Source: a virus. From it: a DNA stretch of 40,159 nt. The position numbers and the translations under genes were made by a program. A model generated the notes under the pieces. The model was not told the DNA's origin. It searched no databases and was given only the letters and a program-made list of their open reading frames with translations. Shown piece after piece: positions 2,914-8,728 of this stretch. Positions within the stretch are counted from its first letter, which is position 1; every line of letters begins with the position of its first letter. The DNA lies in UHGV virus genome UHGV-0014911; one strand, written 5' to 3'.

Positions 2914-3122
2914 TATTTCGCCTGATGCCAACTCAAAATCTTTTTTGTCGCATCCATTGTGGATTAATATTCAGAGGTAAGGGGTATCTGCGGAATTTAT
3001 ATTTTGCAGGATGAGCATACAATACATGATATAACATCTGTTTTTGGCACAGAGCATATAGTCAGATTATGTTTAGTTCTGTGCCATAGATGGATATTAT
3101 CTCACCTCTTGGCTAACTCTCA

Positions 3123-3317
3123 TTACTCAATAACTCCAGCAAATCTGTATATTTTGCGTGATGCCCATTTATTTGGGCAGGATTTAATATCAGGATCTGG
3201 AAAATCTGGCCTGTATTTCTGGCCTGTCCTCCTGTTTACGCTGTTCCAGCGAAGCACCGTCGATATTGAAACGCCACAGAATTCGGCGACTTGTTTTGTT
3301 GTCATTAAGTTGCTCAT
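3123..3317 (-). CDS. AlpA-family small DNA-binding protein (excisionase/regulator-like)
   Basis: 64 aa with RBS GGAGG 7 nt upstream of the ATG at 3317. Pattern HTH ... TVLRW ... YRPDFPDP ... W resembles the AlpA/Xis-like family typical of P4-type integrase modules. Confidence 0.55.
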   Translation of the reverse strand: MSNLMTTKQVAEFCGVSISTVLRWNSVNRRTGQKYRPDFPDPDIKSCPNKWASRKIYRFAGVIE

Positions 3318-4905: not shown

Positions 4906-5268
4906 TTAATGACCTGCTGCGCGGAGTTTTCCGTCAGGTTCACCGGCAAGAGTCAGTAATTGTCCCTGGTCTTCCTGCAGAATAGTCAGGCGACCACCGC
5001 GATTGACATACATCGGCGTTTCGGTGGTGTCTTCTTCGGAAATTTTCCCGCGGTTAGTCGGACGAACATATGAGAGTTTGTGTTTTATTTTCACACGGTT
5101 CTCATCAAACGGTTCGATTTCCAGGTTGAGCGAGACCTTCCCTTTGGTTTTCGTGTTCATCACACCTGAAGCGACTTCACTGAGAACAGCGCCGATTTTG
5201 GTTTCAAATACGCCGCCGTCCAGCTCCCCGATAAATGCCTGCACATCAGTACTGCGTTCGCTAGCCAT
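4906..5268 (-). CDS. Small conserved prophage protein, YfdP-like, 120 aa
   Basis: Start placed at the ATG at 5268 with RBS AGGAG about 7 nt upstream. The track ORF extends further upstream without a ribosome-binding site. Confidence 0.5.
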   Translation of the reverse strand: MASERSTDVQAFIGELDGGVFETKIGAVLSEVASGVMNTKTKGKVSLNLEIEPFDENRVKIKHKLSYVRPTNRGKISEEDTTETPMYVNRGGRLTILQEDQGQLLTLAGEPDGKLRAAGH

Positions 5269-5279
5269 TTTGCTGCTCC

Positions 5280-5876
5280 TCATCATATCGACCCTGCAAG
5301 GTCGGTTGGTTTCTCCACAAAACAGAGAAGAACACCTGCGGTGGCAGCCGCCCGGGTGGATTGGGTTATGAGCCCGTCGTCCGGTGATGCTCTTCTCTGT
5401 TTTGTAAAAAGAGCGGTACCAGCCGGAAGCAAGTGTACAAACTGGTACCGCCAAAGCAGTGGCTGTTGTGGTGGGCTTGTCACTTAAGCGTATGGTCAAC
5501 CTGACAACCCGGTGTCCTCAACGGGGAAGGAATAACCCCGCCATACTTACCGCCGCGCCATTTCGCGGATTACCACAACGCTGAGAGCACTTAGCCAGTT
5601 ACGGCACCATACTTTGTCGCGGTTCCATAAATGCCCTCATCGTTGCACCCTGGTCTCTTCCCAGGCGTCAAACCGAATCGCCACGCTGGTTAGGCGTCTT
5701 ATCAGCATCATCATTGACTTGCACATTCCGGCTACCTGGTTTGTTTGCCCGAGCAAGGAGTGGATTGTCCCCTTTAACGTCACCAGACCGCTAACGACGC
5801 ATGTGCCATACGCCGTGTTACAACCAAATTTTGTTAGTACCTTGTTTGTATGTCTGGAAAGAAAGATAAAATGAAG
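5280..5876 (-). promoter_or_regulatory. About 600-bp non-coding, structure-rich leader of the leftward early operon (candidate cis-regulatory RNA, processing or attenuation element)
   Basis: No convincing ORF on either strand. Contains a 15-bp perfect inverted repeat ACAAAACAGAGAAGA (5317-5331) / TCTTCTCTGTTTTGT (5391-5405) around a GC-rich 59-nt spacer, plus hairpins CGACC-N6-GGTCG (5289-5304), GTACCAG-N19-CTGGTAC (5416-5448) and GGGG-N9-CCCC (about 5524-5540). Confidence 0.35.
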
Positions 5877-5915
5877 TTGCGCATTATGCAAGTGTTTTTA
5901 TTGCGAGATATGCAA
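5877..5915 (-). promoter_or_regulatory. Candidate OL operators: two TTGC-N7-GCAA palindromes (leftward early promoter region)
   Basis: TTGCgcattatGCAA (5877-5891) and TTGCgagatatGCAA (5901-5915). The same motif recurs between the cI-like and cro-like genes. Confidence 0.45.
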
Positions 5916-5932
5916 TTTGGTGGGTAATGAAA

Positions 5933-5950
5933 AGCCACCTTCTGGTGGCT
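5933..5950 (-). terminator. Rho-independent terminator downstream of the repressor gene
   Basis: Hairpin AGCCACC-ttct-GGTGGCT; on the minus strand it is followed by TTTCATT, 20 bp after the repressor stop codon. Confidence 0.5.
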
Positions 5951-5970
5951 AATTGATGTTGAGGTAGGGG

Positions 5971-6663
5971 TTAATTGTGTCGCTTAAGGGTTTGTGACTG
6001 ACTGATTAAGACCTTTCCAAAGACCATAAACCGATGTTCGTTTTCGCTGGTAATTCCCCATTCGCGGTAAATCTGATTATCAGAAATTACCAGCAGTTTA
6101 TCAGGTATCATTTGCAGTCGTTTGACGTAAATTTTATCATCAAAACCAAATACATATATACCATCCCCATCAAACTGATTGATACTGATATCAACGAAGA
6201 TGAGATCTCCTGGCTCAATGGTTGGACACATACTGTCCCCACGAACGTTGATAACTTTAATGTGATTTGCTGGTCGTCCACCAAACATCGATACAGCATT
6301 ATCAGTTCTGTATTCAATGGCATGAATCACATCAATGACATCACCGCCCTGGATAAGGCCATTTCCCGCACTGGCACTGACATCCAGCATTTCAATACGG
6401 AATACATCCTTCACCTGCGCAACATCCTCACTAATACTGTTTTTACATACAGTATTACTTTTGAGGTCTGAGGTAAAGAGATCAGCAATATCAACACCTA
6501 AGCTCCTGGCAATATTACTCAGGGCTTGTTCAGTGAATTGTTTCTGCTTACCTGTTTCGAGGCGCGAGATATTCGCCGCATCCACTCCTATTGCTTCAGC
6601 GAGATCGGCGATTTTCATGTTCTTCGCCTGGCGAAGTTGTCTGACTCGATTTCCTATGTTCAT
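5971..6663 (-). CDS. CI-like phage repressor (N-terminal XRE-type HTH plus C-terminal S24/LexA-like autopeptidase domain)
   Basis: 230 aa. HTH near the N-terminus (KIADLAEAIGVDAANISRLETGK), Ala-Gly cleavage site (SASAGNG), and Ser/Lys dyad motifs (VRGDSMCPTIEPGDLIFVD; YVKRL). Confidence 0.9.
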   Translation of the reverse strand: MNIGNRVRQLRQAKNMKIADLAEAIGVDAANISRLETGKQKQFTEQALSNIARSLGVDIADLFTSDLKSNTVCKNSISEDVAQVKDVFRIEMLDVSASAGNGLIQGGDVIDVIHAIEYRTDNAVSMFGGRPANHIKVINVRGDSMCPTIEPGDLIFVDISINQFDGDGIYVFGFDDKIYVKRLQMIPDKLLVISDNQIYREWGITSENEHRFMVFGKVLISQSQTLKRHN

Positions 6664-6683: not shown

Positions 6684-6746
6684 TTGCGCGTTAAGCAAAT
6701 CAACTTGCGCAAAATATTTGCGTGAAATAATATGCTCATCACGCAA
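6684..6746. promoter_or_regulatory. Candidate OR operator region between divergent repressor and cro-like genes (PRM/PR)
   Basis: TTGCgcgttaaGCAA (6684-6698), a related near-palindrome around 6705-6722, and aTGCtcatcacGCAA (6733-6746) lie in the 97-bp intergenic region. Confidence 0.45.
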
Positions 6747-6760
6747 TATGTGGAGGTTAT

Positions 6761-7021
6761 ATGCAATCACCATTACGGAATGTGCGTAAGGCGCACGGAT
6801 TTACTTTGCAGCATGTTGCTGCGGGCGTTCAGGTCAATCCAGCGACGCTGAGTCGTATTGAAAGACTGGAACAAATTCCATCTATCGATCTTGCAGAACG
6901 TCTGGCCAATTTTTTTAAGGGTGAAATCAGCGAAATGCAGATTCTTTATCCGGCACGTTTTCAATCTAGCCAAAACCAGAATGGGTTTAAACCACAGGAA
7001 CAGGAGGTAAGCCGTGGGTAA
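6761..7021 (+). CDS. Cro-like XRE-family HTH regulator
   Basis: 86 aa, HTH motif (LQHVAAGVQVNPATLSRIE), RBS GGAGG 4 nt before the ATG, divergent from the repressor. Confidence 0.75.
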   Translation: MQSPLRNVRKAHGFTLQHVAAGVQVNPATLSRIERLEQIPSIDLAERLANFFKGEISEMQILYPARFQSSQNQNGFKPQEQEVSRG

Positions 7022-7571
7022 TCATCACTGGAAAGTGGAAAAACAGCCTGAGTGGTACGTGAAAGCTGTCAGAAAAACTATCGCGGCGTTGCCGGGGGGT
7101 TACGCTGAAGCTGCTGAGTGGCTGGATGTAACAGAGAACGCATTATTCAACCGCCTTCGTGCAGATGGCGATCAGATTTTCCCGCTGGGATGGGCAATGA
7201 TTTTACAACGTGCTGGTGGAACTCACTTCATTGCTGACGCTGTGGCGCAGTCTGCAAATGGCGTCTTTGTGTCTCTTCCTGACGTCGAGGATGTGGACAA
7301 CGCCGATATTAACCAGCGTCTGCTGGAAGTCATCGAACAGATCGGGAGTTACTCAAAGCAGATTCGTTCGGCAATCGAAGATGGGGTAGTGGAACCGCAT
7401 GAGAAGACAGCAATTAACGACGAACTGTATCTTTCAATTTCGAAGCTCCAGGAGCATGCAGCACTGGTCTACAAAATCTTCTGCGCTCCAGAAAAGAGTA
7501 ACGCCCGCGAGTGTGCAGCTCCGGGCGTCGTGGCGTCGATTGCTTCTGGTTGTGGAGAAACTAACGCATGA
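7014..7571 (+). CDS. Early-region protein, possibly a CII-like regulator by position (family not confirmed)
   Basis: 185 aa, GTG start with RBS AGGAGG 5 nt upstream, immediately after the cro-like gene. Confidence 0.4.
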   Translation: MGNHHWKVEKQPEWYVKAVRKTIAALPGGYAEAAEWLDVTENALFNRLRADGDQIFPLGWAMILQRAGGTHFIADAVAQSANGVFVSLPDVEDVDNADINQRLLEVIEQIGSYSKQIRSAIEDGVVEPHEKTAINDELYLSISKLQEHAALVYKIFCAPEKSNARECAAPGVVASIASGCGETNA

Positions 7572-7716
7572 ATAGTTTAACGGCAAATAACCGTTTGTCG
7601 CAACAGCTGGTGGTCAGCGTCGCTGAACACCTGTTGTTACGGCATGAATGCAGATTACCAAATCACCTGGCTGTAAGTAACCACAGAGAACTTTACCTGA
7701 TTGTGGGGGGCGAGTT

Positions 7717-7896
7717 GTGCAGGAACTTAACCGCTGGTTTCGTGACGGAAGAGGACTTTATGTTCATGTTATTCGTTGGGAGCCAGAAACACAGCGCGTT
7801 ATCTATCTTCGCAAAGACTACCCGCATGAGTGCTTTAGTCCTTTGTGGAAATTCAGGCGTGATTTTGTTGAGTGTGAAGGACCACCAGCATATTGA
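7717..7896 (+). CDS. Small hypothetical protein (59 aa, GTG start), absent from the ORF track
   Basis: Manual translation gives VQELNRWFRDGRGLYVHVIRWEPETQRVIYLRKDYPHECFSPLWKFRRDFVECEGPPAY, preceded by a G-rich RBS-like run, in a 600-bp stretch otherwise lacking a convincing gene. Confidence 0.3.
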   Translation: MQELNRWFRDGRGLYVHVIRWEPETQRVIYLRKDYPHECFSPLWKFRRDFVECEGPPAY

Positions 7897-8170
7897 TTCT
7901 GCAATTCCGGGACGTTACACTGTCTCTGCACCTTATAAAGCGGGTGCCGGGATTGGCGTCCTGAAATTGTCAACGGCGATGTATGACGCGCCAGCGTCTT
8001 TTTTATCGTCCGCATTTGCTCACATCCAGATTATGGTGGGCTGGGCGGGGGCACCGAAAGGTGCGCCGGTCTCCGTTGACGCCGGTTACGCCAACCCCGT
8101 CCAGTTCACCACCAGTGAAATTGGCGTTTCCGGTGGTGGAAGTTTTTCACTGTCAACGGAGGCTGCCATC

Positions 8171-8728
8171 ATGGCTACGATCCCAGCCCTCACTCAACCT
8201 GAAATCACCATTGACAACGGCCAGGCCGTTACCACTTCTTTGGCTGTTGCCAACTTCTTCTCCAAGCGTCACGACGATGTGCTGAAAAAGATCCGCACTC
8301 TGGATTGTTCCCCTGAGTTTTGTGCCCGCAATTTTGCGGAGACATCGATTTCGGTAAATCAACCGAACGGTGGTACACGCAAGCTCCCTTGCTATCAAAT
8401 CACACGAGACGGTTTTGCATTTCTTGCTATGGGTTTCACGGGTAAACGTGCTGCCCGGTTCAAAGAGGCATACATAAATGCCTTTAACCAGATGGAAAAA
8501 CTGCTTTCAAAGCCATCCACGCTGAGCGATGCCGCAGATAACGCCAGCGTGCTTTACTCCCACCTGTCGGTAATCCACAAGGTCTGGCTGCAGCAGCTTT
8601 ATCCCATGTTGGCAAAAGCCGAATCCCCGCTGGCTGTAAGTCTGTATGACCGCATCAACGACGCGGCGCTACTGGCCAGTCTCATAAATTTGTCGCTGAA
8701 CCCTTCAGAGGTAAGGGGGCGCAAATGA
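8171..8728 (+). CDS. Rha-family phage regulatory protein (antirepressor-like)
   Basis: pRha-type motif (TTSLAVANFFSKRHDDVLKKIRTL ... YQITRDGFAFLAMGFTGKRAARFKEAYINAFNQME). Start placed at the ATG at 8171 with RBS GGAGG 8 nt upstream. The frame stays open upstream to 7568, so the N-terminal boundary is uncertain. Confidence 0.7.
   Translation: MATIPALTQPEITIDNGQAVTTSLAVANFFSKRHDDVLKKIRTLDCSPEFCARNFAETSISVNQPNGGTRKLPCYQITRDGFAFLAMGFTGKRAARFKEAYINAFNQMEKLLSKPSTLSDAADNASVLYSHLSVIHKVWLQQLYPMLAKAESPLAVSLYDRINDAALLASLINLSLNPSEVRGRK

Follow-up and report, generated by a model that had tools for sequence, protein, structure and literature searches.

The window analysed is a stretch of 40,159 nt from the virus genome UHGV-0014911. 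A gene for a cI-like repressor with Peptidase_S24 and HTH domains occupies positions 5971-6663 on the minus strand, and a cro-like HTH gene is found on the plus strand at 6761-7021, followed by a CII-like gene. The first early-left gene (4906-5268) encodes a YfdP-like protein of unknown function and matches phrog_204 with an E-value of 1e-49. A hairpin with the 7-bp stem AGCCACC/GGTGGCT, followed by the T-run TTTTCATTACC, is located on the minus strand at 5933-5950. It is the putative end of the cI transcript and would insulate the early-left promoter PL; the equivalent hairpin of SfII is annotated as a putative rho-independent terminator.

The predicted PL and two operator-like repeats, read from the letters, lie at 5864-5916 on the minus strand. 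The 15-bp direct repeats TTGCGCATTATGCAA and TTGCGAGATATGCAA fall within 5877-5916 (OL sites at approximately 5878-5892 and 5902-5916), and the predicted promoter has the form TTGCAT-N17-TATCTT, with the -35 hexamer at 5887-5892 and the -10 hexamer at 5864-5869. Sequences of the type TTGCGC...GCAA, related to the OL repeats, are present near the predicted PR (6685-6730). Transcription from PL is predicted to start near 5856. Between this promoter and the first gene lies an untranslated leader of about 590 nt (5270-5856, minus strand). Its gene-proximal end carries a small hairpin (5287-5306) and the Shine-Dalgarno sequence GAGGAG (5277-5282), which together with the ATG of the gene (5266-5268) span 5266-5306 on the minus strand. 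In phage lambda, nutL and the N gene are found in the corresponding place. In contrast, the window has no N gene and no clear single-stranded boxA and boxB.

The initial annotation described the leader as rich in strong secondary structure and free of a convincing ORF. Both descriptions are correct. The folding energy is -222 kcal/mol, compared with -200 +/- 4.5 kcal/mol for shuffled sequences (n=20, z = -4.9). None of the leader ORFs has a Pfam match, no reading frame is conserved in the modules A, B and D described below, and a search of the leader ORFs for similarity to YdfA, YdfB and YdfC found none. The absence of an N-like protein, also claimed earlier, agrees with the Pfam-negative ORFs and with the YfdP-like first gene, the N-terminus of which is not arginine-rich. 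Two of the checks suggested for the region were carried out. A covariance search against the known RNA families of Rfam 15 gave no match above chance, either for the leader or for its homologous counterparts in P1, phiV10, Tyrion and mEp390. The comparison with related phages revealed three modules conserved with compensatory base changes. Judged by this comparison, the leader is a chain of conserved folded RNA modules, consisting of module A, a stalk helix, module B, a small RNA in the position of DicF, and module D. The proposal of a cis-acting RNA stands as far as a functional RNA is concerned, but the leader contains several separable modules rather than one cis element, and a DicF-type small RNA gene with its own terminator is found inside it.

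Module A (5627-5839, minus strand) is an RNA of about 200 nt with helices H1, H2, H5 and H7 and a pseudoknot, in which the H5 loop CACC/AACC pairs with GGUG/GGUU. The covariance model of this module, R2, scores 166.8 bits on the window copy (E = 3.8e-55). In an alignment of 32 sequences (A3), 95.6% of cells are paired, compared with 85.9% after shuffling, and 81 cells contain double changes, compared with 24. The strand of the module was settled because the U-G pairs are invariant. A long-range pairing proposed by RNAalifold was rejected in favor of a local hairpin, H1, in which 15 compensatory changes from G-C to A-U were counted. An ORF of 29 residues, MCKSMMMLIRRLTSVAIRFDAWEETRVQR, was also rejected, as the same segment in the relatives is a hairpin of variable length and a covarying stem. 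[quoted passage not shown] It is also found in P1, P7 and D6, in epsilon15-like phages and in many lambdoids. In phage P1 it follows a tRNA gene and lies directly 5' of ban, and in the epsilon15-like phages it precedes a tRNA. Clustering of the gene neighborhoods around module A revealed no universally linked protein.

The stalk helix (5582-5641, minus strand) is predicted from the minimum-free-energy fold, where GAUGAGGGCAU pairs with GUGCUCUC around a variable insert. In the relatives the same arms surround different inserts. The 3' arm continues into GCGUUGUGG, the 5' strand of the closing helix of module B. A boxA-like string, GUGCUCUCA, is present at 5583-5591 and is followed by hairpin P2 of module B, an arrangement that resembles boxA-spacer-boxB. 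However, the string forms part of the 3' arm of the predicted helix, and since it is predicted to be paired, the boxA idea was kept as a lead only. A true rrn-like boxA, UGCUCUUUAACAA, follows module A only in other phages, namely in L218, with near-matches in L173 and L185.

Module B (5460-5581, minus strand) is a domain of about 110 nt with a closing helix P1, hairpin P2, helices P4, P3 and Pb, and a pseudoknot Pa, formed between GUAUGG and the CCAUAC of the Pb loop. An alternative inner hairpin in the Pb loop was rejected in favor of Pa, as one of its positions is unpaired in 16 of the 28 sequences. The covariance model R1 scores 140 bits on the window copy (E = 5e-37). Compensatory changes are found in 13 pairs, compared with 5.1 after shuffling, and the Izhakiella sequence alone has three compensatory pairs in Pb. 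In all cases the P3 loop is rich in pyrimidines (UCCUU or CUCC). In all 72 of the 72 distinct contexts listed, a hairpin ending in a T-run is located 20-40 nt 3' of the module. In mEp460 and Stx2a_1447 an unrelated insert, B', takes the place of module B before the same terminator, and cdtI retains module B. The segment 5473-5579 of the window is 97% identical to positions 3001-3107 of the Qin locus (L001), a segment directly 5' of DicF in K-12. By this alignment, module B and the 5' domain of the 190-nt DicF precursor are homologues. Searches of Rfam with modules A, B and D each gave no match. Two modules of the leader are widespread in enterobacterial phages yet missing from Rfam.

The Qin system has been characterized by experiment, and it is useful to compare it with the window. 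DicF and its 190-nt precursor are attributed to Faubladier 1990, as cited in PMC10448788. In Qin dicBF, the 190-nt species receives its 5' end from RNase III cleavage at +813/814 and a 53-nt species is produced by RNase E (PMC10448788). The length of the larger species implies that the RNase III end lies a few nt 5' of module B. In the window, the corresponding small RNA (5406-5464, minus strand) sits 3' of module B in the same order and spacing as DicF. It would begin with a 5' part that is single-stranded, CAGCCACUGCUUU, and continue into a terminator hairpin and a U-tract (5406-5410), and it has the motif UUUGGCGGUAnCAGUUU in common with DicF. The terminator stems at 5442-5451 and 5413-5422 form a perfect 10-bp inverted repeat (I3) followed by UCUUUUU, and the hairpin is stronger than that of K-12 DicF (-22.5 and -15.9 kcal/mol, respectively). 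Both RNAs are located in a repressor-controlled early operon, with downstream protein genes that would be reached by read-through.

However, the two RNAs differ in the 5' single-stranded part and in the loop. The DicF covariance model (RF00039) found no match in positions 5100-6100 even at E <= 10, while the Qin copy scores 76.7 bits, with an Rfam gathering threshold of 48 bits; the model recognizes only one of the 11 variant loci downstream of module B. The loop of the window RNA, CAGUUUGUACAC, matches only AAACU of GGAGAGAAACU at the ftsZ ribosome-binding site, while the L041 variant matches 11 of 11 positions. The loop complementarity to this site that is seen in DicF and in the L041 variant is not evident in the window RNA. 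Crude duplex energies with ftsZ and with its own ribosome-binding site did not differ from those of shuffled sequences, in a test without power, as genuine DicF was not separated either. The surroundings are also different: the ydfABC genes do not precede the window RNA, and the elements downstream of DicF are an STnc100-like element and dicB, while module D and the YfdP-like gene follow here.

A second relative of this arrangement is the "dicF-like region" of phage P1 (annotation of AF234172), where module B, followed by a terminator, is found about 40 nt after the C1-controlled Pban. The same operon contains module A and two helices of the D type. The P1 copy of module B lacks the closing helix GUUGUGG/CCACAAC, and in P1 the modules do not follow one another in a single leader but are scattered between tRNA genes. 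IsrK (RF01394) and STnc100 (RF02076) are also RNAs of prophage early operons, with a small RNA or terminator and read-through into downstream genes. STnc100-like elements begin with a motif of UGUGGUGAAU plus a hairpin, as is found after the window stalks, but both families have distinct sequences and neither matches the leader. IsrK occurs in the rightward operon of the window.

Module D (5311-5411, minus strand) has 25 contiguous pairs and three more beyond an internal loop. The 15-bp perfect inverted repeat reported in the initial annotation is real (arms 5317-5341 and 5381-5405), and folding extends it to the 25 contiguous pairs, which include the U-tract of the upstream terminator. By a rough estimate, about 2e-4 such 15-bp repeats would be expected by chance in 650 nt. 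The description of the spacer as GC-rich was incomplete, as this spacer carries a conserved apical motif, ACGGGCUCAUAACCCAAUCCAC; the apex resembles a 7-nt CAU loop. The fold of 5290-5412 has a free energy of -54 kcal/mol. Homologues are found in P1 (two copies), D6, F1055, Erwinia, Izhakiella and others, in which the helix is kept while the sequences of the arms are entirely different. These arms are too divergent for an RNAalifold alignment, and compensation was assessed by folding the duplex of each sequence separately; on this basis module D is conserved by compensation as a helix of at least 25 base pairs. An ORF of 66 residues on the minus strand through the module was rejected, as its frame is not conserved in the relatives. 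The module was correctly placed near the ribosome-binding site, just upstream of it, with the helix 30 nt before. The suggestion of an RNase III site is plausible, as a long helix beside a ribosome-binding site is a candidate substrate, and by analogy with the lambda nutL-N leader, which has an RNase III site, its cleavage might influence translation.

With moderate confidence, we propose that the leader of this N-less lambda-like prophage is a precursor for non-coding RNAs placed ahead of the early genes. On loss of the repressor, RNA polymerase starting near 5856 would transcribe module A, the stalk, module B and then the small RNA in the DicF position. The intrinsic terminator, with its U-tract at 5406-5410, would stop some of the polymerases and release a precursor containing A, B and the small RNA. 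RNase III, acting on the long helices, and RNase E, acting on the single-stranded linker after module B, would trim this precursor as in Qin dicBF. The products might be a long form of about 180 nt, with module B and the small RNA, and a short small RNA of about 60 nt, which would act in trans. The polymerases reading through would synthesize module D, the 25-bp helix of which pairs the U-tract with downstream sequence. Cleavage of this helix by RNase III would detach the early-left mRNA from the structured leader and define the 5' end of this mRNA. The Qin site of RNase III seems to be on a helix flanking module B and DicF, and this helix is not conserved in the window. The precursor model assigns no particular function to the best-conserved parts of the leader, the pseudoknots and the invariant unpaired bases of modules A and B, which look over-engineered for mere processing spacers.

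Further known systems to compare are the put RNAs of HK022 and HK639. The put RNA suppresses termination in cis, and mutations in the zinc-binding domain of rpoC block this effect. The leader resembles HK022 putL/putR and the putL-like RNA of HK639 in that a structured RNA lies close to the promoter of an early operon in an N-less lambdoid, with terminators downstream and no dedicated protein apparent. It may be, although we hold the idea only tentatively, that module A, perhaps together with module B, folds on the nascent RNA and modifies its own polymerase so that the terminator of the small RNA and later terminators are read through without N, as an analogue of put and not a homologue. Such an activity would suit a phage that lacks N, while an intrinsic terminator lies between PL and every early-left gene, and the position of module A as the first element after the promoter, close to the predicted start in some types, is also in favor. 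RNA antitermination is expected in N-less lambdoids (PMC12315714). In SfII, F1055 and pPE4 a different small structured element, not clearly put-like, takes the same position after PL in otherwise similar leaders. A terminator-like hairpin was found within 900 nt 3' of module A on the same strand in 36 of 44 non-redundant contexts, compared with 15 of 44 for the upstream control; however, the antisense control was also high (26 of 44).

Several observations speak against this reading. Module A is about 200 nt long and has pseudoknots, while put is about 70 nt with two stem-loops, and the put sequences fail to align with module A. Neither R1 nor R2 gave a significant match in HK022, and R2 gave none in HK639, although put RNA is known or annotated in these phages. 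The strings GCGCGGCGG and CCAUGCG are common to module B and put, but their order differs and they were regarded as chance matches, and homology of module B to put was rejected. The 40-kb window has a single module A and a single module B, each found in the left leader; the rightward operon has no copy of either, while HK022 has put in both operons. Finally, the contexts of module A in phage P1 and in the epsilon15-like phages have no obvious need for antitermination. A broader proposal, which we regard as rather doubtful, is that module A, perhaps with module B, represents a new class of cis-acting RNA, unrelated to put, that enables E. coli RNA polymerase to resist termination, and that modules B and D are further new phage RNA families governing the release of the small RNA and the formation of the mRNA 5' end.

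It is unlikely that A, B or both are trans-acting or decoy RNAs, made first after induction and merely ended by the terminator. Possible roles would be those of a protein sponge, of an anti-defence RNA, or of a tRNA or anticodon mimic. Modules A and B do behave as portable units, present in the P1 ban operon, in epsilon15-like moron units beside tRNA-Arg and in lambdoid leaders, and the 190-nt species containing module B is stable in K-12 in stationary phase (PMC10448788). The constant pyrimidine-rich loop of P3 and the CAU-like apex of module D could also be accommodated, but these resemblances are short, no partner gene is consistently linked to module A and no known family is matched.

A ligand- or factor-sensing attenuator, in which formation of the downstream terminator would depend on how A or B folds, is very improbable. 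The pseudoknotted folds with invariant unpaired nucleotides upstream of a terminator would suit such a device, and the GGCGGUA common to module B and the stem of the DicF-type terminator makes an alternative pairing possible. However, the terminators after module B (DicF, window, P1 and F1055 types) are exchanged freely with no matching changes in the module, B' can replace module B before the same terminator, and more than 200 nt of other modules separate module A from the terminator.

The remaining idea takes the region as coding for small proteins, which would be a short N-like peptide or the ORFs that carry annotations in relatives. It is largely refuted and hardly tenable. In its favor are the "hypothetical protein" calls of relatives (mEp460_036/037, cdtI orf40, F1055_0036/0037), PHROG matches over module D (phrog_33599 on the minus strand and phrog_3651 on the plus strand) and a Shine-Dalgarno sequence with ATG or GTG, found in the terminator loop of Erwinia, Trabulsiella, Serratia and F1055. 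Against it, there is no Pfam match, the window terminator loop has neither Shine-Dalgarno sequence nor ATG, and PHROG matches on both strands of the same DNA are typical of ORFs miscalled where non-coding sequence is conserved. The frame on the minus strand meets early stops in Trabulsiella and Erwinia and is shifted in Izhakiella and L041, the 3' arm of module D is read in different frames among relatives, the arms of D in P1 are completely different yet complementary, and the indels of module A among relatives are not multiples of three. Judging from these comparisons, both PHROG families seem to derive from non-coding DNA, and gene callers currently place hypothetical proteins over the RNA modules. 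Boundaries, folds and covariance models are now given for three conserved modules that Rfam lacks.

The DicF family extends beyond its catalogued members, with a conserved precursor domain, module B, and interchangeable small RNA "heads". This bears on the prediction of how prophage induction affects host cell division and metabolism. If the antitermination reading is true, module A would be the missing early antitermination device of the many N-less lambdoid prophages (the mEp460, 2H10, cdtI and Stx2c group), also recruited in the ban operon of phage P1 and in epsilon15-like phages. To our knowledge, early transcription control in N-less lambdoids has been resolved only for HK022 and HK639. 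Parts of the leader match 4814 of 5426 complete E. coli genomes, of which 999 carry at least 80% of it, and the carriers include Stx2-converting phages. This leader type is therefore very common, and it bears on the way in which early transcription is controlled without N.

The leader lies in a lambdoid immunity region. The repressor gene, cI-like with Peptidase_S24 and HTH domains, is found at 5971-6663 on the minus strand, with a hairpin and then a T-run on its 3' side (5933-5950). A cro-like HTH gene (6761-7021) and, after it, a CII-like gene are located on the plus strand. There are two operator-like repeats of 15 bp each at 5877-5915. The early-left promoter PL, predicted from the sequence as TTGCAT-N17-TATCTT, overlaps the proximal repeat and would place the leftward transcription start near 5856. 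The gene reached first in this direction is YfdP-like (phrog_204), with its ATG at 5268 and GAGGAG in front; DUF2303 (YfdQ-like) and HD-domain (YfdR-like) genes come next. The leader between the PL start and this gene is about 590 nt long.

The initial annotation described the leader as strongly structured and lacking both a convincing ORF and an N-like gene, and these points are confirmed. A Pfam search of the leader ORFs gave no match, the first gene is the YfdP-like one, and the folding energy of the leader is -222 kcal/mol versus -200 ± 4.5 kcal/mol for shuffled sequences (z = -4.9). The 15-bp perfect inverted repeat is also present, at 5317-5331 and 5391-5405, and forms the core of a helix with 25 contiguous pairs. 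In BLAST comparisons with phage and E. coli genome collections, the relatives differ from part to part of the leader; 4814 of 5426 complete E. coli genomes match parts of it, and 999 match at least 80%. Dissection of these matches delimits five modules, and the leader is a mosaic of them, all on the minus strand. The earlier proposal of a cis-acting RNA is retained as far as a conserved structured RNA is concerned, but not as a single cis element. One of the five modules is a predicted DicF-related small RNA with a terminator-like hairpin.

Module B (5460-5581, minus strand) is 97% identical, over 5473-5579, to a stretch of the K-12 Qin prophage that has ydfC on one side and dicB on the other and stops 25 nt short of DicF (RF00039, 76.7 bits). 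Qin DicF has two forms, of 53 nt and 190 nt; the 5' end of the longer is cut by RNase III at +813/814 and the shorter is produced by RNase E (PMC10448788). A length of 190 nt puts the RNase III end a few nucleotides 5' of B, which makes B the 5' domain of the longer DicF form. In phages P1 and P7, the C1-controlled promoter Pban lies about 40 nt upstream of B, at a place called 'dicF-like region' in the GenBank record. It also occurs in Salmonella phage F1055, one phage deposited as an Actinobacillus phage, more than 120 IMG/VR contigs, and genomes of Escherichia, Shigella, Citrobacter, Serratia, Trabulsiella, Erwinia and Izhakiella.

The fold of B was drawn by eye and then tested on alignments. 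Helix P1 (GUUGUGGU with ACCACAAC) closes the domain; its other elements are hairpin P2, the helices P4, P3 and Pb, and the pseudoknot Pa, in which GUAUGG pairs with CCAUAC of the Pb loop. Among 28 non-redundant sequences 92% of the cells are paired (slid controls, 32-56%), and 13 pairs have compensatory changes versus 5.1 ± 1.5 in shuffles; the pairing count was also run on a 70-sequence version. Three consecutive Pb pairs are altered on both sides in Izhakiella. Pa is paired in all sequences, its single variable position being U-A, C-G or U-G, but this gives limited support because the search patterns preset several Pa positions. An inner hairpin competing with Pa was rejected, being broken in 16 of the 28 sequences.

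A hairpin with a terminal T-run stands 20-40 nt after B in every one of the 72 distinct sequence contexts listed. This hairpin is DicF in Qin-type loci; elsewhere the stems or single-stranded 5' parts vary, and AUUGCUGUGUGUAGUCUUGGCGG is a frequent alternative head. In the window it belongs to a predicted small RNA at 5406-5464 (minus strand), which has UUUGGCGGUAnCAGUUU in common with DicF and a perfect 10-bp stem followed by UCUUUUU (-22.5 versus -15.9 kcal/mol for DicF). The Rfam DicF model, which recognises one of 11 variant loci, does not match it even at E <= 10. By reading of the sequences, the anti-ftsZ sequence in the DicF loop is perfect in variant locus L041 but missing from the window loop; in a crude duplex-energy comparison neither the window RNA nor genuine DicF stood apart from shuffled sequences. 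We therefore classify the predicted RNA as DicF-related and 'DicF-position', outside RF00039. In phage pPE4 (locus L009, 2600-2770) the unit of small RNA plus terminator that follows B is tandemly duplicated. The terminator hairpin is longer in the Erwinia, Trabulsiella, Serratia, Izhakiella and F1055 loci, where its loop contains a Shine-Dalgarno sequence with ATG or GTG (MFYRGTA...) and a short ORF of variable end, perhaps for a terminator-coupled leader peptide; the window loop has no such start.

Module A (5627-5839, minus strand) directly follows predicted early promoters in many lambdoid phages (mEp460, mEp390, Stx2 phages). In P1, P7 and D6 it has trnI on one side and ban on the other, and it precedes a tRNA-Arg gene or other RNA modules in the epsilon15-like phages phiV10 and Tyrion. 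A 29-codon ORF was rejected, its segment belonging to this second conserved RNA. The fold contains helices H1, H2, H5 and H7, and the H5 loop pairs with GGUG/GGUU in a pseudoknot. In 32 diverse sequences 95.6% of cells are paired, versus 85.9% when shuffled and 28-49% in slid controls, with 81 double-change cells versus 24; H1 by itself has 15 G-C to A-U exchanges. The transcribed strand is fixed by invariant (32/32) or almost invariant (31/32) U-G pairs. A conserved protein is excluded, because the variable hairpins differ by indels whose lengths are not divisible by three. The covariance-model search against known families proposed in the initial annotation gave no Rfam match for the A copies of the window, P1, phiV10, Tyrion and mEp390. 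A model of A itself finds a single copy in the window (166.8 bits) and none in Qin, SfII, F1055, pPE4, HK022 or HK639. Three IMG/VR contigs have a hairpin just after A and then a boxA-type sequence, which is perfect rrn-type (UGCUCUUUAACAA) in L218 and a near-match in L173 and L185; A and Nus-factor signals are thus compatible within one phage. The post-PL position of A is taken by another small conserved element (GAACAGGCAGGACGCCCACGAAGUAGCCGCC...GGAUGAUUCG) in SfII (locus L004, ~2370-2440), F1055 (locus L005, ~3080-3140) and pPE4 (locus L009, ~2320-2410), with no clear relation to put, the antiterminator RNA of HK022 and HK639.

Between A and B, a stalk helix (GAUGAGGGCAU with GUGCUCUC; 5582-5641, minus strand, predicted fold) encloses a variable insert, and its 3' arm continues into GCGUUGUGG. 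This is followed in relatives by B, by an unrelated insert B' (mEp460, Stx2a_1447, Tyrion) or by a tRNA (phiV10). In the close relatives mEp460 (locus L002, 3191-3332) and Stx2a_1447 (locus L006, 1691-1832), B' (~140 nt) replaces B, keeps its closing helix and precedes the same terminator; it opens with UGUGGUGAAU and a hairpin, like STnc100-like elements. Inserts inside the stalk of F1055 (locus L005, ~2300-2440) and Stx2a_1447 (locus L006, ~1850-1960) have two T-arm-like hairpins (GGUUCGAUUCC, GUUCAAUUCGGAC), which may be tRNA-derived fragments.

Module D (5311-5411, minus strand) starts at the terminator U-tract. Its 25-bp helix and three further pairs have a predicted energy of -54 kcal/mol, a small downstream hairpin included, and its conserved apex is ACGGGCUCAUAACCCAAUCCAC. 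Two D-type helices occur in P1 and more in D6 and other phages, with the apex kept and arms that are wholly different yet complementary. These complementary arms of unlike sequence are the strongest argument that structure, not a protein, is selected. D has a single open frame running through it, and in Trabulsiella, Erwinia, Izhakiella and L041 this is interrupted by a stop, shifted or replaced by a different reading frame. PHROG matches lie on opposite strands (5286-5483, minus; 5341-5484, plus), and their families, phrog_33599 and phrog_3651, were probably built from miscalled ORFs. The comparison of structures proposed at the outset supports a conserved RNA: the folds of A and B have compensatory changes, and the D helix is kept despite different arms. 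In the P1 ban operon (locus L008, 2487-2654, 3469-3933 and 4772-4956), B with a terminator, two D-type helices and A directly before ban are interleaved with tRNA genes; one D-type helix is followed by an STnc100-like element (33 bits) ahead of tciA.

Homology with Qin makes it somewhat probable that the leader is a small RNA precursor with trimming and read-through. Termination at 5406-5412 would release A-B-sRNA, which RNase III and RNase E would trim. D would form in the read-through transcripts, which would carry the early-left genes; it is long enough to serve as an RNase III substrate, because the enzyme prefers about two helical turns. The pseudoknots and invariant loops of A and B find no explanation in this reading. 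Over its first 300 nt the transcript is G-rich (C/G 0.55-0.9), and the remainder is C-rich yet base-paired; beyond the 5' end, unpaired runs in the minimum-free-energy fold reach 11 nt at most. Such heavy structure alone may keep Rho off this long untranslated leader.

Read-through could instead be active, that is, antitermination. The phage has no N, yet a strong terminator precedes every early-left gene, and A is the first RNA made. A terminator-like hairpin was found within 900 nt after A in 36 of 44 non-redundant contexts, versus 15 of 44 upstream, but the antisense control was also high (26/44). Moreover, neither A nor B is homologous to put, the rightward operon has nothing similar to them, and antitermination is not obviously needed where A occurs in P1 and the epsilon15-like phages. 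We regard active read-through as rather unlikely, but as the main rival. Still less likely are an RNA acting in trans or as a decoy, an attenuator of riboswitch type, and small proteins encoded in the leader.

The rightward early operon contains IsrK (62 bits) and C4 antisense RNA (81 bits) back to back at 7928-8116 (plus strand), upstream of a Rha/antirepressor-like gene, and thus also opens with a small RNA and terminator. The pair is found in mEp460 as well. A 386-aa ORF (7568-8728, plus strand) spans both RNAs; its 5' part is probably non-coding, and the true start of the Rha-like gene is likely near MATIPALTQPE.

The DicF precursor, the 'dicF-like region' of P1 and the lack of N in some lambdoids were known before. 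Neither Rfam 15 nor the literature searched was found to contain B's conserved fold, modules A and D or their folds, the modular leader common to lambdoid, P1 and epsilon15-like phages, or the breadth of small RNA heads at the DicF position. The finding is placed with the small RNA precursors of prophage early operons, with a genuine possibility that A represents something new.
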